DNA of 64,000 nucleotides from Acidimicrobiia bacterium (GTDB lineage: Bacteria > Actinomycetota > Acidimicrobiia > Spongiisociales > UBA5794). Location of the stretch: positions 25,656 through 89,655 of the forward strand of contig JAOZRW010000001.1 in assembly GCA_029939995.1 (NCBI GenBank), in the 5' to 3' direction. The position numbers and the translations under genes were made by a program. The notes beneath the pieces were generated by a model, which did not search any database, had not been told where the DNA came from, and saw only the letters and a list, made by a program, of their open reading frames with translations. Every line of letters starts with the position of its first letter. Position 1 is the first letter of the stretch. Below, piece by piece: positions 1-64,000 of this stretch.

Positions 1-3000
1 GGCCTCGGCGATCGCCTTGACCGCCTGCGTGTTGTTCGCCCCGATCGCGATGTGGGCCACGTACACGTTGCCGTACGACATGGCGATCTGGCCGAGGTCC
101 TTCTTGGCCGTCGCTTTTCCGCCGGCCGCGAACTTGGCCACGGCTGCTCGCGGTGTCGCCTTCGACGCCTGGCCCCCGGTGTTCGAGTACACCTCGGTAT
201 CGAGGACGAGGATGTTGATGTTCTTGCCGGAAGCGATCGCGTGATCGAGGCCTCCGAAGCCGATGTCGTAGGCCCAACCGTCCCCGCCCATGATCCACAC
301 GCTCCGGTCGACGAGTGCGCCGACGACGACCTCCAGCCTCCTCGCCTCCTCGCCGTCGATGTCGGCGAGCTTCGCGGTGAGTTCGGCTATGTGTGAACGC
401 TGCGCAGCGATCCCCGCAGGACCCGACTGGTCGGCTTCGAGGATCGACGTGACGAGATCCTCTCCGACGACGCCGGACATCCCCTCGAGAAGCCGCCGCG
501 CCTCTGCAGTCTCCATGTCGATGGCGAGCCGCATCCCGAGGCCGAACTCCGCGTTGTCCTCGAACAGCGAGTTGGACCACACCGGGCCGCGTCCTTCGTC
601 GTTCGTCCTCCAGGGCGTCGTCGGGAGGTTCCCGCCGTAGATCGACGAGCATCCCGTCGCGTTCGCCACGACCAGCCGGTCACCGAAGAGTTGGCTGACG
701 AGCTTCACATAGGGCGTCTCTCCGCAGCCGGCGCATGCCCCTGAGAACTCGAACAACGGTTCGAGCATCTGCGAGCCTTTCACCGTCGCGAGCTTGAACT
801 GGTCGCGCGGCGGTTCGGGGATCGTGGTGAAGAAGTCCCAGTTCGTTCGCTCGATGTCCAGATGGTCGAGCTTCGGCTCCATGTTGAGCGCCTTGTGCTT
901 GACCTCCGTCTTCGACTTGGCCGGGCAGACGTCCACGCAGACGCCGCAGCCGGTGCAGTCGTCGGGGGACACCTGGATCGACATGAGATGGTCCGGCAGT
1001 TCGCGGCTCCGGAATCCGCGGGTCTTGAAGGTGTCGGGCGCCCCTTCGAGCGCGCTCGGCTCGAACACCTTCATCCTGATCGCCGCGTGCGGGCACACGA
1101 GGGCGCACTTGGCGCACTCGATGCAGATCTCCGGATCGAAGATCGGGATGTCGACGGCGATGCTGCGCTTCTCGTACTGCGTCGTCCCCGTCATGAACGT
1201 CCCATCCACGGGGAGCGCCGAGACGGGCAGCTGGTCGCCGCGGTCTTCGAGCATCATCGCGGTCACCCGCTGCACGAAGTCCGGAGCATCCGCCGGCACC
1301 GTTCGCCGCATCGCGATCGTCGACGTGACCTCCGACGGGACCGCTACGCGATGCAGGTTCTCGACGGCGCCGTCGACCGCCGCGAAGTTCTTCTCGACGA
1401 CGACGTCGCCGAACTTCGAGTACGACTTCTTGATCGCCTTCTTGATGGAGCCGATGGCTTCGTCCTGCGGCATCAGCTCGGCCAAAGCGAAGAAACAGGT
1501 CTGGAGAACCGTGTTCGTGCGCTGGCCGAGCCCGGCGTCTCTGGCGACCGATGTCGCATCGACGACGTAGAACGCGAGTTCCTTGTCGATGATCTCCCGC
1601 TGGACGTCGGAGGGCAGCTCTCCCCAGACTTCGTCCGGGCCGTACGGGCTGTTCAGGAGGAACGTCGATCCCTTCCCGGCCTTCGCGAGAACGTCGACCT
1701 TGTGCACGAATTCGAACTGGTGGCACGCCACGAAGGTCGCGTCATCGATGAGGTACGTCGCTTCGATGGGCGACGGGTCGAATCGAACGTGCGACGTGGT
1801 CATCGAACCCGACTTGCGCGAGTCGTAGACGAAGTACCCCTGTGCGTAGAGAGCCGTCTCGTCCCCGACGATCTTGACGGTGTTCTTGTTGGCCCCGACG
1901 GTTCCGTCTGCACCGAGACCGTAGAACACCGCCCGCACCTGCGCCTCGCGCCCCGTCTCGAAATCGGCACGCGGCTCGATGGACAGGTGGGTGACGTCGT
2001 CGACGATGCCGACGGTGAATCGCCGTTTCGGATCTTCCTTGCGGGCCTCGTCGAAGACGCCGGCGGCCATCGCAGGCGTGAACTCCTTCGACGACAAGCC
2101 GTACCGACCGCCGATGACGCGCGGCGGGTTGGCCCATGAGGTGCGTCCGAGCTGCGTCTCTTCCGCTACGACCGTCAACACGTCCTGGAAGAGCGGCTCC
2201 CCGATCGCGCCGGGTTCCTTCGTTCGATCCAGCACCGCGATCGTCTCGACGGTCGAGGGCAGTGCGGCGATCAACGCCTCGGTGGAGAAGGGGCGGAAGA
2301 GGCGGACCTTCACCAATCCGACTTTCTCGCCCTGTTCGACGAGCGCCCGAACGGCCTCTTCGGCTGCTCCGACTCCGGAGCCCATCATCACCATCACCTC
2401 GGTGGCGTCGGGCGCTCCGACGTAGTCGAAGAGGTGGTAGGCGCGTCCGATCCGATCGGCGAATCGATCCATCGCCCTCTGGACGATGTCGGGTGTGGCC
2501 TCGTAGAAGCGGTTGCAGGCTTCACGGGCCTGGAAGAACACATCCGGGTTCTGGGCGGTGCCGCGAAGAACGGGCTTGTCCGGGTCCATCCGCCGTTCCC
2601 GGTGGGCGATCACTCCGTCGATCGGGATCAGAGACCGAAGGTCGTCGTCGGAGATCTCCTCGATCATGTTCACCTCGTGGGAGGTGCGGAACCCGTCGAA
2701 GAAGTGGAGGAACGGGATCCGGCTCTCGAGGGTCGCCATCTGGGCGATCGCCGCCATGTCGTGGGCTTCCTGGACCGAGTTCGAAGACAGCAGCGCCCAT
2801 CCCGTTCCGCGGGTCGCCATCACATCGCTGTGGTCCCCGAAGATGGACAGGGCGTGGGTCGCCACGGAGCGGGCCGCCACGTGGAAGACCGCAGGCGTCA
2901 ACTCACCGGCGATCTTGAACATGTTCGGGATCATCAGCAGAAGGCCCTGCGACGCCGTGAACGTTCCCGTCAGCGCGCCGCCCTGGATCGCTCCGTGAAC

Positions 3001-3228
3001 GGCGCCGGCGGCGCCGGCCTCGCTCTGCATCTCGATGACGTCGGGGATGTTCCCCCAGATGTTCGGCCGCCCCTGATTCGACCAGGCGTCGGCGTGCTCG
3101 CCCATCGGGGACGACGGGGTGATCGGGTAGATGGCGAGGACTTCATTCGTGCGGTATGCGACGGACGCGGCTGCTTCGTTGCCATCGACCGTGAGCACGG
3201 TCCGCGTCGGCGCTTCGATGATGGTCAT
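1..3228 (-). CDS. nifJ: pyruvate:ferredoxin/flavodoxin oxidoreductase (PFOR), C-terminal end cut by window edge
   Basis: Absent from ORF track because it runs off the left edge. Reverse-strand translation from ATG at 3228 reads MTIIEAPTRTVLTVDGNEAAASVAYRTNEVLAIYPITPSSPMGE..MQSEAGAAGAVHG..FFDGFRTSHE. It has two 4Fe-4S motifs (CIECAKCALVCPHA, CTGCGVCVDVCP) and a TPP motif GGDGWAYDIGFGGLDH. GGAGG lies about 10 nt upstream. Confidence 0.93.
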   Translation of the reverse strand, partial: MTIIEAPTRTVLTVDGNEAAASVAYRTNEVLAIYPITPSSPMGEHADAWSNQGRPNIWGNIPDVIEMQSEAGAAGAVHGAIQGGALTGTFTASQGLLLMIPNMFKIAGELTPAVFHVAARSVATHALSIFGDHSDVMATRGTGWALLSSNSVQEAHDMAAIAQMATLESRIPFLHFFDGFRTSHEVNMIEEISDDDLRSLIPIDGVIAHRERRMDPDKPVLRGTAQNPDVFFQAREACNRFYEATPDIVQRAMDRFADRIGRAYHLFDYVGAPDATEVMVMMGSGVGAAEEAVRALVEQGEKVGLVKVRLFRPFSTEALIAALPSTVETIAVLDRTKEPGAIGEPLFQDVLTVVAEETQLGRTSWANPPRVIGGRYGLSSKEFTPAMAAGVFDEARKEDPKRRFTVGIVDDVTHLSIEPRADFETGREAQVRAVFYGLGADGTVGANKNTVKIVGDETALYAQGYFVYDSRKSGSMTTSHVRFDPSPIEATYLIDDATFVACHQFEFVHKVDVLAKAGKGSTFLLNSPYGPDEVWGELPSDVQREIIDKELAFYVVDATSVARDAGLGQRTNTVLQTCFFALAELMPQDEAIGSIKKAIKKSYSKFGDVVVEKNFAAVDGAVENLHRVAVPSEVTSTIAMRRTVPADAPDFVQRVTAMMLEDRGDQLPVSALPVDGTFMTGTTQYEKRSIAVDIPIFDPEICIECAKCALVCPHAAIRMKVFEPSALEGAPDTFKTRGFRSRELPDHLMSIQVSPDDCTGCGVCVDVCPAKSKTEVKHKALNMEPKLDHLDIERTNWDFFTTIPEPPRDQFKLATVKGSQMLEPLFEFSGACAGCGETPYVKLVSQLFGDRLVVANATGCSSIYGGNLPTTPWRTNDEGRGPVWSNSLFEDNAEFGLGMRLAIDMETAEARRLLEGMSGVVGEDLVTSILEADQSGPAGIAAQRSHIAELTAKLADIDGEEARRLEVVVGALVDRSVWIMGGDGWAYDIGFGGLDHAIASGKNINILVLDTEVYSNTGGQASKATPRAAVAKFAAGGKATAKKDLGQIAMSYGNVYVAHIAIGANNTQAVKAIAEA

Positions 3229-5226: not shown

Positions 5227-6138
5227 TCATCTCCCGACGGCCGCACGCAGGAAGAACGCCAGGTTCGCGGGCCGCTCGGCCATGCGCCGCGTCAGATACG
5301 GGTACCACGCCGTCCCGTACGGGACGTAGAGACGAAGCGGGTAGCCGTCGGCGATGAGCGACTTCTGGAGATTCCTCCGGATCCCGTACAGCATCTGGAA
5401 CTCCCACGGTTCGTCACGCCCGGCGGCGAGTTGTTTCGTGAGTTCGATCCTGGCGTCGTCGTGTGTGGCGATGGCCGGAGTGATTCCGGGTGTTGCCATC
5501 AGCCGACGCGTCAACGCATCGAACGCCGCATCGACGGCGGCCTTCTCCTGATGAGCGGTCGTCGAGGGCTCCGCGTAGGCGCCCTTGCAGAGGCGCACGA
5601 GGCCGCCGCGAGGCACGATCCGGTCGAGGTCCGCCGGTGTGCGATAGAGGTAGCTCTGCACCGCGATGCCGACGTTCCCGTACCGGCTCTGAACGTCCTC
5701 GAACGCGGTCACGATCTTCTCGACGTGCCGGGACTCCTCCATGTCGATCGTCACCGTCGTACCGCCCCGGGCGGCACGTTCGGCGAGCGCGTTCAGAGAC
5801 TCGAGTGCGAGATCGTCGTCGAATCCGAGCCCGAGTTGGGTGAGCTTGACCGAGATCTCGGCGTCCAGCCCCTCAGCGTCGATACGGTCGAGACAGTCGA
5901 GGTAGTCGTTTCTCGCCTCGATCGCAGCCGTTCCGTCGGCCACGTGTTCTCCGAGGTGATCGAGGGAGACTCGTGCCCCCATGCCGTTGATCGCCCGGGC
6001 TGCGACGACGGCGTCGTCGATCGTCTCTCCCGCGACGAATCTCAGCGAGAGCCGACGCCCCGCCGTCGACTCCGCGAAGACCTTGCGAACGGATGATCGG
6101 TTCGTGACGGCGAGAAGGCTCCGACCGATGACGTTCAT
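5227..6138 (-). CDS. proline dehydrogenase (monofunctional PutA-like)
   Basis: 303 aa. Motifs SLDHLGE, VKLTQLG, IAVQSYLYR, RLCKGAY and FQMLYGIR are characteristic of the PRODH family. Confidence 0.9.
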   Translation of the reverse strand: MNVIGRSLLAVTNRSSVRKVFAESTAGRRLSLRFVAGETIDDAVVAARAINGMGARVSLDHLGEHVADGTAAIEARNDYLDCLDRIDAEGLDAEISVKLTQLGLGFDDDLALESLNALAERAARGGTTVTIDMEESRHVEKIVTAFEDVQSRYGNVGIAVQSYLYRTPADLDRIVPRGGLVRLCKGAYAEPSTTAHQEKAAVDAAFDALTRRLMATPGITPAIATHDDARIELTKQLAAGRDEPWEFQMLYGIRRNLQKSLIADGYPLRLYVPYGTAWYPYLTRRMAERPANLAFFLRAAVGR

Positions 6139-6959
6139 GACCTGAATCGCTCGGTGGCGGCCTCACCGAGCTCATGCGACCGGCGGGTCGCCGCCTGGAT
6201 CGCGTCCTCCATGAGGGCCCGGAATCCGCCCTCCTCGAGCACGTGCATGGCGGCCGCCGTCGTCCCTCCCGGAGAGGTCACTTCACCCCGGAGCCGGAAC
6301 GCGCTCTTCTCCGATCCGGCGAGCAGCATCCCGGATCCCCGCAGGGTTTGATGCACGAGACGCTCGGCCGCGTGGTGAGGAAGCCCCTCGCGAATGGCCG
6401 CCTCGGTCATCGCTTCCGCGAGGAGGAACACGTATGCGGGTCCCGTACCGGACACGGCGGTGACGGCGTCGAGCAGGTCTTCCGAGAGACGGATCGTTTC
6501 CCCTACGGCACCGAGGACGGCCGCGGCGTCTTCCATCGCGGGCTCGTCTGCGTGGGCTCCGCCACAGTACGCCGTCATCCCTTCGTCGACCGACGCCGGC
6601 GTGTTCGGCATCGAACGGACGACGGGGATCCCGGGGAGGGCCTCTTCGTACAGGGCGAGTGTGATCCCCGCGGCGAGCGACACGACCACCTGATCGGCGG
6701 TGAGCGTCTCCGCGATCTGAGAGAGCAGCACGGGCACGTCTCTCGGCTTGACCGCGATGACCACGACGCGCTTACCTGCCGCTGCTTCAGCGGCGTCGAG
6801 CACGGTGGTGACGCCGGTGCGGAACTCGGCCTCCCTGGCCCGCTCCGGCCGCCGCGCGGCGAGAGTGAGGTCTTCGGGCGCCCACCCGGCCCGTACCAGG
6901 CCGCGAGCAACGATCTCCCCCATGGACCCGGCCCCGAGAATTCCAACCGAAGGTTTCAT
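6135..6959 (-). CDS. proC: pyrroline-5-carboxylate reductase
   Basis: Start set at MKPSVGILGAGSMGE (Rossmann GxGxxG). The C-terminal motif TSPGGTTAAAM is present. The upstream part of the track ORF (to 7112) is translation of a repeat element. The stop overlaps the PRODH start (ATGA). Confidence 0.9.
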   Translation of the reverse strand: MKPSVGILGAGSMGEIVARGLVRAGWAPEDLTLAARRPERAREAEFRTGVTTVLDAAEAAAGKRVVVIAVKPRDVPVLLSQIAETLTADQVVVSLAAGITLALYEEALPGIPVVRSMPNTPASVDEGMTAYCGGAHADEPAMEDAAAVLGAVGETIRLSEDLLDAVTAVSGTGPAYVFLLAEAMTEAAIREGLPHHAAERLVHQTLRGSGMLLAGSEKSAFRLRGEVTSPGGTTAAAMHVLEEGGFRALMEDAIQAATRRSHELGEAATERFRS

Positions 6960-6981
6960 CCCCCCGATCCTAGTTGCGCGC

Positions 6982-7033
6982 TGCGAACCCAGGGCTCGCA
7001 GGCGGAAATAGCCGCGTTTCCGGCCCACAGAAC
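6982..7033 (-). repeat. 52-nt hairpin-forming intergenic element, copy 1 (inverted relative to copies 2 and 3)
   Basis: The reverse complement gttctgtgggccggaaacgcggctatttccgcctgcgagccctgggttcgca matches copies at 8068 and 9936 with 3-5 mismatches. Confidence 0.85.
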
Positions 7034-7075
7034 AGACCCCTAGGAACCCGCCGACGGAGTCGGCATGATGCCCCC

Positions 7076-7990
7076 ATGAGCAACGAACGAAACGCCCTCG
7101 ACATCGCGTCACTCCAGGGTGGCGTGATCACTGCCGCGCAGGCCCGAGAGTGTGGGATCAATCGGCACGCGGTCCGGTACCGCCTGAGCACCGGCCGATG
7201 GACGAGGGTCTCCCGGTCGGTCTATCGGCTCGTTGATATGGATGAACCGGCCCAACTCCTTCGCGCCGCTATCACCGCACTCCCCAACTCGGTCGTCTCG
7301 CATGAGTCCGCAGCGGAATTGCACGACATCCCTCGCGTCCGGCGCGGTCTCGCGGTCATCAGCGTCCACACCCGAACCACGCACGTGTTCCCGGGTGTGA
7401 TCATCCGCCGGAACCACGATCTCCTGGAACACCACACGGAGTTGGTTGCCGGGTTGCCCGCCACGACGCTTCCCCGCACCGTCATGGACCTTGCGGCCCT
7501 CTTGCATCCCCGGCATATCGAACGAATCGTCGACGATCTCACCACTGAGAAACGTCTCAGCACGAAGACCCTGAGCGAGGTGCTCGACGATGTGGCCCGC
7601 CGCGGCAAGCCCGGATCGACCACGATCCGCACCATCCTGAGGAACCGTGGTTGGGGCCTCGACCGGGACGCCACCGTCCTCGAGCGTCGAGGCTTGGCGG
7701 TCCTCCGCGCCGGCGGCCTACCGGATCCCGTGCTCGAACTCCCGATCCCCTGGAACCCGACCCGTCGATTCGACGCCGCATACCCCGACTTCAGAATTGC
7801 GATCGAGTGGGACTCCCGGCGATGGCACCAGAGCGACGAAGCCTTCGAACAGGATCGGGAGCGGGACCGATCGGCGCTTCTCCACGGATGGTCGGTCTAC
7901 CGATTCACCTGGCGCGATGTGACTGAGCGACCCCAGCACGTCATTGCGACGATCCGAACGGCGATCGAGACGGCCGAGGCGGCCGAGTAG
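7076..7990 (+). CDS. AbiEi_4-like wHTH plus DUF559 (Vsr-fold endonuclease-like) domain protein
   Basis: N-terminus LQGGVITAAQARECGINRHAVRYRLSTGRWTRVSRSVYRL. C-terminus YPDFRIAIEWDSRRWHQSDEAFEQDRERDRSALLHGWSVYRFTWRDV is typical of DUF559. Start set at MSNERN; the upstream track extension is repeat-derived. Confidence 0.8.
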   Translation: MSNERNALDIASLQGGVITAAQARECGINRHAVRYRLSTGRWTRVSRSVYRLVDMDEPAQLLRAAITALPNSVVSHESAAELHDIPRVRRGLAVISVHTRTTHVFPGVIIRRNHDLLEHHTELVAGLPATTLPRTVMDLAALLHPRHIERIVDDLTTEKRLSTKTLSEVLDDVARRGKPGSTTIRTILRNRGWGLDRDATVLERRGLAVLRAGGLPDPVLELPIPWNPTRRFDAAYPDFRIAIEWDSRRWHQSDEAFEQDRERDRSALLHGWSVYRFTWRDVTERPQHVIATIRTAIETAEAAE

Positions 7991-8067
7991 AGAGGTCATG
8001 ACAACGAGCCGTGGTCGAAGGGGATGCCCATCTCCGCCCGGGAACGCCGGACTCGCCTGCCACTTCG

Positions 8068-8119
8068 GTTCTCTGGGCTGGAAACGCGCCTATGTCCGCC
8101 TACGAGCCCTGGGTTCGCA
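8068..8119 (+). repeat. 52-nt hairpin-forming intergenic element, copy 2
   Basis: gttctctgggctggaaacgcgcctatgtccgcctacgagccctgggttcgca. It overlaps the last codons and stop of the macro-domain gene. Confidence 0.85.
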
Positions 8120-8627
8120 GCGCGGTGCGGAAGGAGTCGGCGATGTCGCTGCCGAACGCGACGAGGCGGATCTCTTCGAGGGATCCGTTCGCGTCGAGCC
8201 ATCGCCGGACTTCGTCCGCGATGATCCGGCACGCGTCGGCCGGCGGATACCCGAAGATCCCGGCGGAGATGGCCGGCAACGCGACGGACCGCGCCCCGAG
8301 GTCCGCCGAGACGTCGAGTGCGGCGCGAACGGCGCTGCGGAGCATCCCCTCGTTGTCCTGCCCTGATCGATAGACGGGCCCGACGACGTGCACGACGTAC
8401 CGGGCCGGCATGGGACCCGCCGAGGTGACCGCCGCGCCTCCGGGCGGCACCGGCCCGTGCTCATCGATCCATGCCCGAGACTCCTCGTCGACCGCCGGAG
8501 CTCCCGCCGATGCGATCGCCGCCGCGACGCCTCCTCCGTGAGCGAGATGGGCGTTCGCCGCGTTGACGATCACGTCGACGTCCTGTTTCGTGATGTCACC
8601 GCGCACGACCGTGACTCGTCCCGTCAT
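8100..8627 (-). CDS. macro domain protein (ADP-ribose binding / O-acetyl-ADP-ribose deacetylase-like)
   Basis: 175 aa. Motifs GDITKQDVDVIVNAANAHLAHGGGVAAAI and ALPAISAGIFGYP are classic macro-domain signatures. Confidence 0.9.
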   Translation of the reverse strand: MTGRVTVVRGDITKQDVDVIVNAANAHLAHGGGVAAAIASAGAPAVDEESRAWIDEHGPVPPGGAAVTSAGPMPARYVVHVVGPVYRSGQDNEGMLRSAVRAALDVSADLGARSVALPAISAGIFGYPPADACRIIADEVRRWLDANGSLEEIRLVAFGSDIADSFRTALRTQGS

Positions 8628-9914: not shown

Positions 9915-9935
9915 GGAGCCAGCGTAGACCGCTAC

Positions 9936-9987
9936 GTTCTCTGGGCCGGAAACGCGGCTATGTCCGCCTACGAGCCCTGGGTTCGCA
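9936..9987 (+). repeat. 52-nt hairpin-forming intergenic element, copy 3
   Basis: gttctctgggccggaaacgcggctatgtccgcctacgagccctgggttcgca, 21 nt upstream of the nitroreductase ATG. Confidence 0.85.
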
Positions 9988-10000
9988 CGGTGCATGGGAA

Positions 10001-10026
10001 GAGGGACCGGGCGGACCCGGTCCCTC
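10001..10026 (-). terminator. GC-rich hairpin downstream of PLDc_N-SHOCT gene
   Basis: gagggaccggg-cgga-cccggtccctc: a perfect 11-bp stem with a 4-nt loop, just after the stop at 10051. Confidence 0.5.
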
Positions 10027-10050
10027 TCACCTTCAACGGCTTGTATCGGC

Positions 10051-26344: not shown

Positions 26345-28507
26345 ATGGAACTCACACACTTCTCGTTCAGCGTCGAAGACGGCATCGCCGTCGTTCTCCT
26401 GGATCGTGCCGGCGAGCCCGTCAACACGATCGGGCCGGCGATCTTCGACGACTTCAACACTGTGGTCGAACGGATCGAGACCGATCCGTCGATCAAGGCC
26501 GCCGTCTTCGGCTCGGCGAAGCGCAACAACTTCCTCGCGGGCGCCGACATCCGGTTCTTCGACACGATCACCGAGGCGGAGGAAGGGGCCGCCGTGATCC
26601 GGCAGCTCCACGCCCTCTTCACCCGCATCGAGGCGCTCCACGCGGTCCACGACAAGCCCGTCGTGATGGCGATCGACGGAGCGTGCCTCGGCGGAGGACT
26701 CGAGTTCGCGCTGACCGGCTCGATGCGGATCGCCACGGACAGCAAGAAGACGCAGCTCGGCCAGCCCGAGGTGCAACTCGGCATCCTGCCCGCCGGCGGC
26801 GCGACGCAGCGTCTCCCGAAACTCGTCGGCATCGCGACCGCCCTCGACATGATCCTCACCGGCCGCCCGGTCCGGCCGCACAAAGCCCGGAAGATCGGAT
26901 TGGTCGATGAGGTCGTGCCCCGCGAGGTGCTCTACGACGTGGCGAAGCGCCGTGCGTCGGAGGCGATCGGTCACCTCGGCGAGGGCGGCGGCTCCTCGTT
27001 CAAGTCGTTCCTCGCCCCGACGCATCTCCAGGATCTCGCTCTCGAACAGAACCCGGTCGGCCGCAGGGTCCTGTTCAAGAAGGCCGAGGAGGCGATGCTC
27101 GAGAAGACGAAGGGTCTCTACCCCGCACCGAAGCGCGCGCTCGAAGCCGTGAAGATCGGCATCGAGCAGGGCAACGCCGCGGGCTACGAAGCGGAAGCGA
27201 CCTTCTTCGGCGAACTCATCATCTCCCCGGAGTCGAAGGCGCTGCGCGGAATCTTCTTCGCCACGCAGATGATGAAACATGCAACCGGCATCGGCGGCAA
27301 CGCAGAACCGAAGCAGGTCTCCAAAGTCGGGGTCCTCGGCGGCGGTCTCATGGGAGCGGGAATCGCCACGGTTTCCGTCCTGAAGGCCGGAGCGACGGTG
27401 AGGATCAAGGAAGTCGACACCGACGGCGTCGCGCACGCCCTCCGCCACGTCTCACAGCAGATCTCGAAACAGGTGACCCGCCGCAAGATGACCCCCTTCG
27501 AAGGGGAGCAGGCGATGAACAAGGTCACCGCGACGACGGACTGGAGCGGGTTCGAGAACACCGATCTCGTGATCGAGGCGGTCTTCGAGTCGCTCGAGTT
27601 GAAGCAGGACCTGCTCGAGCAAGTCGAGGGCCTGGTCGGCGACGACGTCGTGTTCGCCTCGAACACGTCCTCCCTCCCGATCGGCCAGATCGCCGCTCGC
27701 GCCGCACGCCCCGAGGCGGTGCTCGGCATGCACTACTTCTCCCCCGTCGAGAAGATGCCGCTGCTCGAGGTCATCGTCACCGAGGACACCGCCGACTGGG
27801 CGACCGCCACCGCCGTCGAGTTCGGCAAGCGCCAGGGCAAGACCGTCATCGTCGTCAAGGACGGACCGGGCTTCTACACGACGAGGATCCTCGTTCCCTA
27901 CCTGAACGAAGCCTTCTTCCTGCTCGCCGACGGCGCTTCCGTCGAGGCGATCGACGATGCGATGGTGAACTGGGGATTCCCGGTGGGGCCGTTGCTCCTC
28001 ACCGATGAGGTCGGCATCGACGTCGGCGCTCACATCGTGAAGATCATGGGCGATGCCTTCGGCGATCGGATCGCCGGACCCGACATGATGGCCGGCCTCG
28101 TCGAGGACGAACGCAAGGGCCGCAAGAACGGCCGCGGCTTCTACCTCTACAACGACAAGGGCGAGCGGGGCACCGTGGACGACACCGTCTACAAGGCGCT
28201 CGGTCTCGGACCGCGCCGCGTCCTCACCGAGGCGGAGATCAGCGGAAGGATCGTGTCGGCCATGGTCAACGAGGCCGCCCGATGCCTGGAAGAGGGGATC
28301 CTGCGGTCCTCCCTCGACGGTGACATCGGTGCCGTCATGGGTCTCGGGTTCCCGCCGTTCCGCGGCGGCCCGTTCTGGTGGATGGACCAGGTCGGCGCCG
28401 GCGAGATCGCCGCGAAACTCGAGTCGCTCGCCGCCGAGCACGGCGAACGCTTCGAACCGGCGTCCATCATCCGGTCCCGTGCGGAAGAGGGCCGGACCTT
28501 CCGCTGA
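26345..28507 (+). CDS. fadB: bifunctional enoyl-CoA hydratase / 3-hydroxyacyl-CoA dehydrogenase
   Basis: N-terminal crotonase fold (FLAGADI, GGGLEFAL). NAD site VGVLGGGLMGAGIA. HAD C-terminal domains. Confidence 0.93.
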   Translation: MELTHFSFSVEDGIAVVLLDRAGEPVNTIGPAIFDDFNTVVERIETDPSIKAAVFGSAKRNNFLAGADIRFFDTITEAEEGAAVIRQLHALFTRIEALHAVHDKPVVMAIDGACLGGGLEFALTGSMRIATDSKKTQLGQPEVQLGILPAGGATQRLPKLVGIATALDMILTGRPVRPHKARKIGLVDEVVPREVLYDVAKRRASEAIGHLGEGGGSSFKSFLAPTHLQDLALEQNPVGRRVLFKKAEEAMLEKTKGLYPAPKRALEAVKIGIEQGNAAGYEAEATFFGELIISPESKALRGIFFATQMMKHATGIGGNAEPKQVSKVGVLGGGLMGAGIATVSVLKAGATVRIKEVDTDGVAHALRHVSQQISKQVTRRKMTPFEGEQAMNKVTATTDWSGFENTDLVIEAVFESLELKQDLLEQVEGLVGDDVVFASNTSSLPIGQIAARAARPEAVLGMHYFSPVEKMPLLEVIVTEDTADWATATAVEFGKRQGKTVIVVKDGPGFYTTRILVPYLNEAFFLLADGASVEAIDDAMVNWGFPVGPLLLTDEVGIDVGAHIVKIMGDAFGDRIAGPDMMAGLVEDERKGRKNGRGFYLYNDKGERGTVDDTVYKALGLGPRRVLTEAEISGRIVSAMVNEAARCLEEGILRSSLDGDIGAVMGLGFPPFRGGPFWWMDQVGAGEIAAKLESLAAEHGERFEPASIIRSRAEEGRTFR

Positions 28508-28597
28508 CAAGCCGGCCGTGCGGAGGAGCACCACCCCGTCCGGGGTCGGCGCCCCGGATCGCGCCCGCCTCTGCAGGAGTACGCTTCCGCAGCGAAC

Positions 28598-29824
28598 ATG
28601 ACCGAACACACATCCCCCGGACCGGAGAACGTCCAGAAGGTCGGAATCATCGGAGGCGGCCCGATCGCTGCGGGGATCGCCGCGGTCTCCGCCGTCCGGA
28701 CCGGAGCGACCGTCCGGGTGAAGGAGAACGACGATGCCGGCGCCCAACGGCTCCTCGCTCGCGTGTCGAACGAACTCGCGAGACGGATCGAACTCGGCGA
28801 GATGACGGAGACCGAAGCCGGACGAGTAGCGGACCGGGTCTCGGTGACCACCGACTGGTCGGGGTTCGACGACGCGGACCTGATCATCGAGTCCGGCTAC
28901 GAGTCCCTCGACCACAAACGTGCCCTCCTCGCCGAAGCCGGAGCCGCTGCGGGAGAGCACACGGTCCTGGCGTCGAACACCTCGTTCCTGCCGATCGGCG
29001 AGATCGCGGCCGGCGCCGACCGGCCCGAGGCGGTTCTCGGCATGCACTACTTCGCCCCGGCCGAGGTGATGCCGCTGCTCGAGGTCGTCGTGACGGACCG
29101 GACCTCCGACCGGGCAACGGCAACCGCCGTCGCGTTCGGGGAGCGCCAGGGGAAAGCGGTGATCGTCGTCGCGGACACCCCCGGCTTCTACACGACCCGG
29201 CTCCTCGTCACGTACCTCAACGAGGCGTTCTTCCTCCTGAGCGAGGGGGCGTCGGTCGAAGCGATCGACGGGGCCATGGTGCGGTGGGGCTTCTCCGCCG
29301 GGCCGTTCCTGCTGGTCGACGAACTCGGACTCGGCTTCGTCACGCACATCATGCAGACCGCGGTCGACGGATTCGGCGACCGGATCGTCGGACCTCCCGA
29401 CGTGATCGATCGCCTCATCGACGACGATCGGTTGGGACGGGCGAACGGCCGGGGCTTCTACCGGTACGACGAGACGGGGCGGCGCACCGGCTTCGACGAG
29501 GGCATCTACGAAGCCATCGGACTGGGCCCGCGGATCGAACTCGACGAGTCGCTGATGCACTCCCGCACGGCACTGTCGATAATCGACGAGGCGGCCCGGT
29601 GCCTCGAGGAGGGGGTCCTCCGATCGGCGCTCGACGGTGACGTCGGAGCGGTGGCCGGACTCGGCTTCCCGGCATCCAAGGGAGGTCCGTTCTGGTGGGC
29701 CGACCAGGTGAGCGCCGGCGGCATCGTGGAACGGCTCGAGATCTACGCCGCCCTGTACGGTGAACGGTTCGAGCCGGCGCAGATCCTGCGCGACCACGCA
29801 GCGTCGGGCAAGAACCTGAGGTAG
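28598..29824 (+). CDS. 3-hydroxyacyl-CoA dehydrogenase (dehydrogenase-only paralog of the FadB C-terminal part)
   Basis: 408 aa, colinear with FadB residues from VGVLGGG onward: VGIIGGGPIAAGIA, LGMHYFAPAEVMPLLEVV, DTPGFYTTRLL. Confidence 0.85.
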   Translation: MTEHTSPGPENVQKVGIIGGGPIAAGIAAVSAVRTGATVRVKENDDAGAQRLLARVSNELARRIELGEMTETEAGRVADRVSVTTDWSGFDDADLIIESGYESLDHKRALLAEAGAAAGEHTVLASNTSFLPIGEIAAGADRPEAVLGMHYFAPAEVMPLLEVVVTDRTSDRATATAVAFGERQGKAVIVVADTPGFYTTRLLVTYLNEAFFLLSEGASVEAIDGAMVRWGFSAGPFLLVDELGLGFVTHIMQTAVDGFGDRIVGPPDVIDRLIDDDRLGRANGRGFYRYDETGRRTGFDEGIYEAIGLGPRIELDESLMHSRTALSIIDEAARCLEEGVLRSALDGDVGAVAGLGFPASKGGPFWWADQVSAGGIVERLEIYAALYGERFEPAQILRDHAASGKNLR

Positions 29825-29871: not shown

Positions 29872-30187
29872 CCTCCCCCTGAGCCTCAATCCACGGTTTG
29901 TGGGTGATAGTTTGGTGAGTGTCCCTTGTGGTGTCTGGGATTCCCGAGATTCGGGTTCTTCACGATCCGGGTGAAGTCGCTGAGGGCTCACTTGGACATT
30001 CTCCCCCGGCGACGAAGGAGGTGGGGGAGATGGCCCGAAGGGCCAGAGAGGGCGTCCTCGAACCGCAGGTGACGCCGCTGTGCCCCCCTGCGGCGCGGGG
30101 CGCCGCGTCCCCCCGTCCTTCGGCCGAGGGGACATGTGGAGAGACGCCGATCTCTCCAGAGCCCGTGGATTGAGGCTCAGGGGGAGG
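29872..30187 (+). other. 316-bp hairpin-dense element closed by a perfect 25-bp inverted repeat (MITE-like or structured RNA; class unknown)
   Basis: cctccccctgagcctcaatccacgg (29872-29896) is the exact reverse complement of 30163-30187. At least 7 internal stems of 5-8 bp. It sits between two convergent gene ends. Confidence 0.6.
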
Positions 30188-35595: not shown

Positions 35596-35776
35596 CGGTC
35601 GCCCCGTCTGTCGGATGACCTGAGAGATTCACCGCGTCGGCGGCTTTCCCCTTCGGTGAGGACCGGGGTCCTGCTCTCCAGAGGTGCCTCGCCCCGCGGT
35701 CCTGGTGCCTGCGAGTTTGCCGGGGTGGTTGCTCCTTCGGCGCGACCTGCGTCGCTCTCCCGCGAGGGTCGGTGGC
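35596..35776 (-). promoter_or_regulatory. tandem glycine riboswitch in gcvP leader
   Basis: The minus-strand RNA shows aptamer 1 GGGAGAGCGACGCAGGUCGCGCCGAAGGAGCAACC and aptamer 2 CUCUGGAGAGCAGGACCCCGGUCCUCACCGAAGGGGAAAGCC..UCUCUCAGGU. A hairpin and GAGGAG precede the ATG. Confidence 0.9.
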
Positions 35777-54489: not shown

Positions 54490-54562
54490 GGGCCTGTAGC
54501 TCCAATGGCAGAGCAGCGGACTTTTAATCCGAAGCGTGTGGGTTCGAGTCCCACCGGGCCCA
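54490..54562 (+). tRNA. tRNA-Lys (anticodon UUU)
   Basis: Cloverleaf by hand: acceptor GGGCCTG/CGGGCCC, D arm GCTC..GAGC, anticodon loop CTTTTAA, T arm GTGGG-TTCGAGT-CCCAC, discriminator A. No encoded CCA. Confidence 0.92.
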
Positions 54563-62343: not shown

Positions 62344-64000
62344 TCACGATCCCCGCAGTGACTTCCTGAACGACTCGAGCGATCGGACGACACCCGAAGC
62401 ATCTTCGCCGATTCGCGGGAGCTTCGCCGACTGGCGCTCGTAGCGGCTGCGCGAGGAACGCTCCGGCGACGGCGCCTCTTCGGCCGTCTCCGTGGGAGCC
62501 GGCTCCGCCGCCTCCCACTCTGCACGCGCTACCGGCGGCTCGTCGTGCGATTCACGGACGACCGGCTCGGAGTCTGCCGCAACGACTTCGTCGCGAAGCC
62601 GGGTGGCTTCCTCTTCGGCCTCTGCGAGACGCCTCTCCGCACGGGCCCGGATGCTCTCAGCCGATTCCCGCGCCTCGGCGAGGATCCGCTCGGCCTGCGC
62701 CTCGGCCTGATCGGCGAGTTCCTTCGCCCTCGATTCGGCGACGCGGAGCGCCTCCTCGGCGGCTTCGGCGGCTGCGTTCGCCTTGGCGCTCGTATCATCG
62801 ATCGTGTCGGCAGCTGCGGACCGTTCGTCGAGCTCGCGTTCGCGCCGCTCGATCTCGGCGATGCGGACCCGGAGCTCGTCTTTCTCGGCCTCGTGCTCTG
62901 CAGCCCGGCGATTCAGTTCGTCCCGCCGGCCCGCCAGGTCGGCTTTCTCCCGCTCGATCTCCTCCGCGAGGGCTGCATGCTCCGATCGGAGCTGCTCGAG
63001 CTCGCGAACTTCGGCCTGAAGCCGCTCGAGTTCCGCCTCCGCAGCGGTGGCTTCTCCTTCAGCGGAGGCGCGGATCCCGACGGCTTCGCGCTGTGCCTGC
63101 TCCACGATCTCGAAGGCCCGACGCTCGGCGTCGGCGAGATCGGCCGCCTGCATCCGAGCCGCCGTCAAGACGCGATCGGCCTCGTCCCGGAGGGCGTTCG
63201 CCGCGAGGCGGATCTCTTCGGCTTCGACCTTCGCCGCATCGAGCGTCTCGGCTGCGTTGCGCGCCTCGTTCTCGGCTTCTTCGAAGATGCGCGACGCTTC
63301 GCTCTCCTTGGCGGCGATCTGCTCGGCTTGCTCCGCCGCCTCTGCATGGATCCTTTCGACCTCGGCCGTTGCTTCGGCGATCTTCCCCGCTGCAGCGGCT
63401 TCCGCTTCGCCCACGATCTCCGCCGCCCGGTCCTCGGCCGTCTGGAGCACCTGGAGCTGCTCCTCGTACTCCTGACGGACCGATGCTGCCTTTTCACGCA
63501 TGCGGGCCACGTCGTCCCTGGCCGCGGCGGTCATCTGCTCGACCGAATCGCGGGCTTCGGCGAGAAGCGCCTCCGCTTCGGATCTGAGCCTGGCGGACTG
63601 CTCGTCGGCCGATGCGGCCCACTGCTGTGCGTCCGCACGGATCGATTCTGCGGCCTCTCCGGCATCGGCCTGTATCACTGCCGCCGCCTCCTCGGCGGCG
63701 CGGATCAGCTCGGCGGCGCGATCCTCGGCGGCGACCCGCTCCCGCTCGGCATCCTCGATCGACGCGAGACGCACGCGTTCGGCCTCCTCGTACGCCTCGA
63801 GCACCGCCCCCTCCGCCTGAAGGGCGATCTCTTCGACGGATGCGATCCGTTCCTCGGCACGCGCCTCCGCTGCGAGGAGCATGCGATGCTGCTCGTCGGC
63901 CGCTTCCCACGAAGTTTCGGCGTCGACGAGAAGGCTGAGGGCGCGTTCTTCCTCCTCGGCGGCCTCCGCGAACCTGGCCTCGATCTTTCGATACGCCTGG
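62344..64000 (-). CDS. Ala/Glu-rich long coiled-coil protein (DivIVA/Scy-like?), N-terminus beyond the window
   Basis: The reading frame stays open to the window edge (..QAYRKIEARFAEAAEEEERALSLL.. precedes the track start). Repetitive A-x-x-A-E-x-I helical modules. Basic tail SRSRYERQSAKLPRIGEDASGVV. Confidence 0.7.
   Translation of the reverse strand, partial: QAYRKIEARFAEAAEEEERALSLLVDAETSWEAADEQHRMLLAAEARAEERIASVEEIALQAEGAVLEAYEEAERVRLASIEDAERERVAAEDRAAELIRAAEEAAAVIQADAGEAAESIRADAQQWAASADEQSARLRSEAEALLAEARDSVEQMTAAARDDVARMREKAASVRQEYEEQLQVLQTAEDRAAEIVGEAEAAAAGKIAEATAEVERIHAEAAEQAEQIAAKESEASRIFEEAENEARNAAETLDAAKVEAEEIRLAANALRDEADRVLTAARMQAADLADAERRAFEIVEQAQREAVGIRASAEGEATAAEAELERLQAEVRELEQLRSEHAALAEEIEREKADLAGRRDELNRRAAEHEAEKDELRVRIAEIERRERELDERSAAADTIDDTSAKANAAAEAAEEALRVAESRAKELADQAEAQAERILAEARESAESIRARAERRLAEAEEEATRLRDEVVAADSEPVVRESHDEPPVARAEWEAAEPAPTETAEEAPSPERSSRSRYERQSAKLPRIGEDASGVVRSLESFRKSLRGS

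Follow-up and report, generated by a model that had tools for sequence, protein, structure and literature searches.

REP sequences are among the most abundant bacterial repeats, and REP-associated tyrosine transposases (RAYTs, TnpA-REP) are the only protein class known to be tied to them. In REP/REPIN–RAYT systems a chromosomal, mostly vertically inherited gene is flanked by inverted copies of a short extragenic palindromic repeat that is also dispersed as solo copies; the repeat is genome- or lineage-specific, paralogs in one genome each have their own repeat family, and the gene is absent from plasmids (PMC5581495). The RAYT protein is a HUH/Y1 (IS200/IS605 TnpA-like) transposase. Two further described systems bear on the locus examined here. 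AbiEi, the antitoxin of type IV AbiE toxin–antitoxin systems, is an autoregulator that binds inverted repeats at its operator and is encoded with the nucleotidyltransferase AbiEii. I-Bth0305I, an EDxHD/Vsr-fold homing endonuclease, is a dimeric, sequence-tolerant double-strand DNA cutter with a separate DNA-binding domain (PMC3239194).

A conserved repeat-flanked locus between proC and a macro-domain gene

We analysed a 64,000-nt stretch of an Acidimicrobiia bacterium (hereafter the window). An earlier note had described a gene for an AbiEi-type wHTH–DUF559 protein bracketed by inverted copies of a 52-nt hairpin element, a layout that it compared to REP–RAYT, and had proposed, should the protein act on the hairpins, a new REP-associated or homing-type mobile cassette. 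The observation itself was confirmed: a repeat search identified inverted arms of 60 nt, 90% complementary and 1,028 nt apart, whose outer ends read TGCGAACCCAGGG...CCCTGGGTTCGCA and which enclose a single open reading frame (ORF). The proposed reading was only partly supported, as described below. The features of the locus are as follows.

6977–7036 (+): repeat copy 1, upstream of the gene in the divergent proC/gene intergenic region; outer palindromic core CTGCGAACCCAGGGCTCGCAG at 6981–7001 (family-invariant CCC-N-GGG at 6988–6994), variable centre at 7002–7021 and conserved inner motif GGCCCACAGAAC at 7022–7033; the inner end is 43 nt from the ATG.
7034–7075 (+): leader between the element and the start codon, containing AGACCCCTAGGAAC (7034–7047), which is conserved in orthologs and paralogs; a promoter −10 (TAGRAW) here is inferred only.
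7076–7990 (+): gene for a 304-aa protein, with an AbiEi-like module (wHTH plus AbiEi C-terminal domain) at residues ~7–199 and a predicted Vsr/EDxHD/DUF559-fold nuclease at residues ~200–300.
8065–8124 (−): repeat copy 2, downstream of the gene and inverted; inner motif at 8068–8079 and outer core at 8100–8120.
8100–8120 (−): last six codons and TAG stop (LRTQGS*) of the convergent macro-domain gene (8100–8627), encoded by the outer core of copy 2.
9933–9994 (−): repeat copy 3, between the SHOCT/PLDc_N gene terminator hairpin and the start of the nitroreductase–murI–macro operon.

The 17-nt outer end occurs three times exactly in the window (five matches at up to three mismatches, one of them a self-overlap on copy 1), against 0.51 matches at up to three mismatches expected from shuffled sequence, and the 20-nt inner end occurs three times against 0.01 expected. 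The third copy, which the earlier note had missed, is 96% identical to copy 2 and lies 1.8 kb away without flanking the gene; it is present at the same site in most relatives, doubled in one (locus L005) and absent in another (L009). A weak fourth core-like match at 62862 lies inside a 512-aa ORF and lacks the rest of the element, and is a chance hit. The three window copies did not fold better than shuffled sequence (z −1.06 to +0.83), such that the term hairpin is justified only at the level of the family, by covariation. No Rfam family matched the element at gathering thresholds or at E ≤ 10, and the only RNA hits in the window lie elsewhere, which led us to reject tRNA-like and riboswitch readings. 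No sigma-70 consensus promoter or intrinsic terminator was found in or near the elements.

To examine the protein, we first searched Pfam, which returned AbiEi_4 (residues 8–53, E 2e-11), REase_MTES_1575 (residues 238–297, E 4e-8; 33.6 bits, below the 38.2 cut-off) and a weak DUF559 hit only. PADLOC AbiEi models covered residues 7–199 at E 1e-27. An AlphaFold2 model built on 43 homologs was confident (pLDDT 92, pTM 0.81), and in Foldseek searches its first ~200 residues matched the whole AbiEi antitoxin (6y8q, probability 1.0), whereas its last ~100 matched the catalytic domain of I-Bth0305I (3r3p, TMt 0.78) and a DUF559-type protein (3hrl, TMt 0.75), both with probabilities of ~1.0. Sequence searches of the PDB with the family profile or with the C-terminal domain alone returned nothing. 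Residues D233, E244, D246, H251 and D260 are invariant in 43 close homologs and in 7 distant sequences only 25–30% identical. We infer, from motif resemblance (IEWDSRRWH against the Vsr FxHGCFWH region) and the description in PMC3239194 rather than from structural superposition, that these residues correspond to the Vsr/EDxHD catalytic set, with Vsr positions D51, F62, H64, H69 and D97. As the earlier note had stated, the protein is not a Y1/HUH transposase.

The neighbouring genes are proC (6135–6959, −), the macro-domain gene, a murI-like glutamate racemase gene, a nitroreductase gene and a SHOCT/PLDc_N gene. No AbiEii nucleotidyltransferase gene is adjacent here or in any syntenic relative, so this is not an AbiE toxin–antitoxin pair. 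A dyad-symmetric DNA element lies upstream of the gene, like the AbiEi operator; compared with AbiEi, however, a nuclease-fold domain is fused to the protein instead, and the repeats also lie downstream of the gene and are dispersed. Compared with I-Bth0305I, the DNA-binding module is AbiEi-like rather than NUMOD, and the gene is free-standing and intergenic rather than inside an intron, an intein or a host gene.

To test whether the unit inserted recently, we compared the locus across relatives; all close relatives come from metagenome-assembled genomes (MAGs) or metagenomes. The exact protein occurs only in MAG and metagenome contigs with the same locus. Homologs of 79, 70, 69, 68, 68, 66, 59, 58 and 54% identity all sit between proC and the macro gene, one of them with a rhodanese gene inserted, with the element at the same intergenic positions. 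All 25 fetched loci that contain both proC and macro also contain the gene, although this sample is biased because loci were fetched through the gene or the repeat. The earlier note had taken the overlap of copy 2 with the 3′ end of macro as a sign of past mobility. The same overlap is present in all syntenic relatives in which macro abuts the element, and all copies at this site (IG2) keep TCGTAG, which provides the stop; where the rhodanese gene separates the two (L077), macro instead ends ...ALGEDAE. The overlap is therefore ancient and not a fresh insertion scar.

These data do not support a recently mobile insertion sequence or homing-endonuclease cassette in this genome, a reading that we consider very unlikely. 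In its favour, the layout resembles terminal inverted repeats around a single nuclease-like ORF, the nuclease domain resembles that of a homing endonuclease, and the unit occurs in many contexts across the family. However, we found one unit per locus set, syntenic among relatives, no empty proC–macro allele among the fetched loci, and no resolvable target-site duplication or clean empty site when the L009 locus lacking copy 3 was compared with the others (IG3). No relatives were detected on plasmids at E ≤ 1e-8, or on phages or viral contigs, and each flank is itself a complete element that also exists solo, unlike IS ends. An inverton, in which the gene flips between the repeats, was also rejected, as the orientation of the gene relative to proC and macro is constant in all loci.

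A dispersed, REP-like extragenic element

We next asked whether the element occurs elsewhere. A scan of a representative genome collection, which evidently lacks the source MAG and that of L005, returned no hits with a pattern of 21 specified bases. A looser core motif returned at least about 50 full-length elements; about half of all hits were chance matches inside genes of unrelated phyla and were discarded. The elements lie on many different contigs of the same Acidimicrobiia MAGs, with at least 11 copies on 9 contigs of CSMAG_619 and at least 7–8 copies each in MAG194 and bin30015. About 45 of these loci have no homolog of the gene within the fetched stretch. By crude gene calls, copies are extragenic, with 3 of 58 lying deep in coding-like frames compared to 49% of random windows.

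An alignment of 81 elements shows an invariant CCC-N-GGG inside a dyad-symmetric core, a variable centre, and an invariant GCCC within a conserved inner motif. Although only 24% of elements fold with z < −2, and a central hairpin is thus not a universal feature, column-wise covariation supports an extended stem (columns 24–38 with 44–58): 76.5% of cells pair, against 67% when shuffled and 34–48% when slid, and the covariation score is 0.354 against 0.212 shuffled (0 of 500 shuffles reach it) and 0.08–0.15 slid. The core palindrome is an alternative, mutually exclusive pairing. The variable centre is genome-specific, with a median identity of 0.78 within genomes, including solo copies on other contigs, and 0.57 between them, a pattern that indicates spreading or homogenization within each genome. 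Tandem doublets, 17-nt internal duplications and a longer sub-family also occur. Some solo copies are ancient and orthologous across genomes, so these data do not demonstrate ongoing mobility.

The covarying stem raised the possibility that the elements act as structured RNA motifs in 5′ and 3′ untranslated regions, with the Vsr-fold domain serving as an RNA-binding or processing module as RAP/FASTK domains do. The stem has one-sided, wobble-compatible changes on one strand (U.G or C-G at 27–55, and U-A or U.G at 28–54), and 22 of 31 solo copies are co-oriented with the gene reading into them, again by crude gene calls. Weaker Foldseek matches (E 4e-3 to 6e-2) hit unidentified chains of apicomplexan and ciliate mitoribosome structures, and a Vsr-like RNA-binding protein, FASTKD4, has been described (PMC11879112). 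However, the two flanking copies are inverted, so only one could be in the functional sense on the gene's own transcript, the N-terminal module is a dsDNA-binding wHTH, the best match of the nuclease domain is a DNA homing endonuclease, and no Rfam family matches. We therefore regard an RNA-level function as improbable.

Association of gene and repeat across the protein family

The earlier note had itself named conditions that would overturn its reading, and none of them held: other family members are repeat-flanked, and relatives at the identical locus carry the gene with the repeats. Homologs in two other contexts, L120 (sigma70-CBS, gene, HerA) and L121 (sulfotransferase, gene, P-type ATPase), are bracketed by inverted copies of related elements. 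We then surveyed 80 further metagenomic loci together with the earlier ones, yielding 88 complete genes in 67 clusters at 90% identity, of which 57 representatives (44–100% identity) had both flanks available. The best local alignment between the upstream flank and the reverse complement of the downstream flank scored ≥20 in 45 of these and ≥15 in 51, whereas 1,323 control window pairs of the same spacing elsewhere in the same loci never exceeded 19, although these statistics involve related sequences. Of the 57, 12 scored below 20, and some members have direct rather than inverted flanking copies (L169, L186 and L211). The genes occupy at least 15 upstream and 18 downstream contexts, and the inner end of the upstream element lies at a fixed distance from the ATG, 43 nt in the proC group and 54–55 nt in the sigma70-CBS group. 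In all, roughly 60 gene–element pairs were collected.

One MAG has two paralogs at different loci, each flanked by its own variant of the element. Members only 25–26% identical, from cultured Mycobacteriales, are flanked by unrelated palindromes. Of two Tsukamurella tyrosinosolvens DUF559 genes, one is flanked by a 42-nt palindrome with 93% complementary arms, which also has solo copies elsewhere in the strain, and the other by a different 60-nt palindromic element; a Gordonia gene is flanked by a third palindrome. Tsukamurella proteins of the family include WP_068740572.1 and WP_139286304.1, from a cultured strain. In contrast, a Pseudonocardiaceae member and a genuine AbiEi–AbiEii pair are not flanked. 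The family is large, with 3,450 clusters (50% identity) at E ≤ 1e-30 across Actinomycetota. In the literature we could search, no paper links DUF559 or MTES_1575 with REP-like repeats, AbiEi or flanking repeats.

These results strongly disfavour the possibility that the gene is a bystander around which repeats mobilized by some other enzyme accumulate. Although the third window copy does not flank the gene and most copies are solo, the flanking recurs at fixed geometry in at least 15 contexts, with cognate variants for paralogs in one genome and with unrelated repeat sequences in distant members, and control pairs never reach the observed scores.

A possible analogue of REP–RAYT systems

Taken at the level of genomic association, the locus parallels REP–RAYT systems in having a chromosomal gene flanked by inverted extragenic palindromes, dispersed solo copies, genome-specific repeat populations and paralogs with their own repeat variants. 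Synteny is conserved from 100% to 54% identity among MAG and metagenome contigs, no relatives were detected on plasmids at E ≤ 1e-8, and two paralogs in one MAG each have their own repeat. The locus differs in that the protein is unrelated, an AbiEi-like wHTH module plus a Vsr-fold, predicted hydrolytic nuclease, so the chemistry (no covalent intermediate) and any spreading mechanism must differ; the repeats are mostly singlets or direct tandem doublets rather than inverted REPIN doublets; and copy numbers seen so far, three in the window and at least 11 in one MAG, are modest, tens and not shown to reach REP-like hundreds. The protein lacks the defining RAYT feature and is thus an analogue, not a member.

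We favour, with moderate confidence, a model in which the 52–60-nt repeats belong to a REP-like family of extragenic elements in Acidimicrobiia, each with a conserved outer palindrome (GCG-W-ACCC-N-GGGT-W-CGC), a covarying imperfect hairpin and a conserved inner motif (RGCCCRCRGWWY), and in which the enclosed gene encodes the cognate protein. Element, leader, gene and inverted element would form one conserved unit, in this lineage a vertically inherited chromosomal resident between proC and macro. Our analysis establishes the specific, family-wide, cognate association of gene and flanking repeats, the dispersed solo copies, the genome-specific homogeneity of the repeats and the conservation of nuclease-type residues. 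The functional steps, by contrast, are inferred, without biochemical evidence that the protein binds or cuts the element: that the wHTH dimer binds the palindromic core, that the upstream copy mediates autoregulation as AbiEi does at its operator, and that the nuclease nicks or cuts at or near the elements. A PD-(D/E)xK-type hydrolase has no known way to transpose DNA alone; because a hydrolytic nuclease cannot transfer strands itself, the breaks would be repaired by host recombination using other copies, which would homogenize the copies by gene conversion and occasionally seed or duplicate them.

The main alternative, which we consider possible but unlikely, is that the protein is an AbiEi-like transcription factor or nucleoid protein and that the flanking and solo elements are simply its binding sites, serving autoregulation and a regulon. 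The match to a known autoregulator type, the fixed distance of the upstream element from the ATG, the dyad-symmetric core suited to a dimer and the conserved orthologous intergenic sites of some solo copies are consistent with this reading. However, the elements are 55–60 nt and alike over their whole length, including non-palindromic parts, with genome-specific centres, internal duplications and tandem doublets, which is the behaviour of repeats related by descent rather than of independently evolved operators. In addition, the nuclease-type residues are invariant across the family, and a downstream copy abutting the stop codon is not expected for a promoter operator.

A broader reading, which we consider about as likely as not, is that AbiEi-wHTH–DUF559/MTES_1575 proteins, currently annotated as orphan 'AbiEi antitoxin domain' or 'DUF559' proteins, form a second, non-homologous class of repeat-associated domesticated nucleases. 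Each gene would be the cognate partner of a genome-specific family of palindromic extragenic repeats, which it binds, cuts and thereby maintains, homogenizes or disseminates through host recombination, a new route to REP-like repeat populations. The repeat-plus-keeper arrangement would then have evolved convergently and could run on hydrolytic nuclease chemistry plus host repair. It would also supply natural pairs of a sequence-specific nuclease and its probable ~55-nt target, amenable to direct tests in vitro. Finally, it would give a function to a very large family of actinobacterial 'DUF559/orphan AbiEi antitoxin' genes and explain the origin of intergenic palindromes in Acidimicrobiia, Tsukamurella and Gordonia.

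Other repeats and structured RNAs in the window

Beyond the repeat-flanked gene, the window contains several further repeated or structured sequences.

9998-10035: a strong GC-rich hairpin (GGGAAGAGGGACCGGGCGGACCCGGTCCCTCTCACC) just 3' of the SHOCT gene
27523-29790: two stretches repeated at ~1315-nt spacing with 72-73% identity
29872-29903 and 30156-30187: a 32-nt inverted repeat pair, 91% complementary, 252 nt apart
35602-35772 (-): tandem glycine riboswitch aptamers
54490-54562 (+): a tRNA gene

The hairpin at 9998-10035 is present at the same place in relatives and is probably the terminator of the SHOCT gene, with the third copy of the repeat inserted next to it. The repetition within 27523-29790 suggests adjacent paralogous genes. 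The 32-nt inverted repeat pair lies inside a gap of ~390 nt between convergent ORFs and could be a small mobile element or a structured RNA. The riboswitch aptamers and the tRNA gene were the only Rfam hits in the window.

Arrangement of the element around family genes

Although flanking copies are mostly inverted, in a minority of family members (loci L169, L186, L170, L171 and L211) the two copies match better in direct than in inverted orientation. Downstream of the ortholog in MAG CAZCBO (locus L077, positions 2880-3070), there appears to be a tandem array of core-like units, in which a spurious ORF translates as RGCEPWVRDRA repeated about three times.

Contigs carrying the Acidimicrobiia-type element were also found filed in MAGs of unrelated phyla, namely a 'Saprospiraceae' bin (L028, L036 and L114), 'Kiloniellales' bins (L040, L056 and L080) and 'Acidobacteria' bins (L031, L042 and L086). 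These are probably binning errors; L040 also has the full proC-side synteny.

Sequence variation among element copies

In the alignment of elements (A2, columns 20-26), the invariant centre CC-N-GG of the core, mostly CCWGG, coincides with the Dcm/Vsr recognition sequence, which is curious given the predicted Vsr-fold nuclease encoded by the associated gene. However, C or G also occur at the centre (L189, L201 and L206), such that this may be coincidence. At one orthologous intergenic site the element is carried by three different MAGs (loci L081, L045 and L030), two of which have a 17-nt internal duplication of the centre. Finally, in MAG CSMAG_619, several solo copies (L023, L024, L076, L078 and L106) share extra conserved flanks on both sides (5' ...GGTGCCCGGACCGNCCGCCAAGTNCT, 3' GATTCCCCGCCTATCCGCTGATC...), suggesting a longer composite sub-family of ~110-120 nt.
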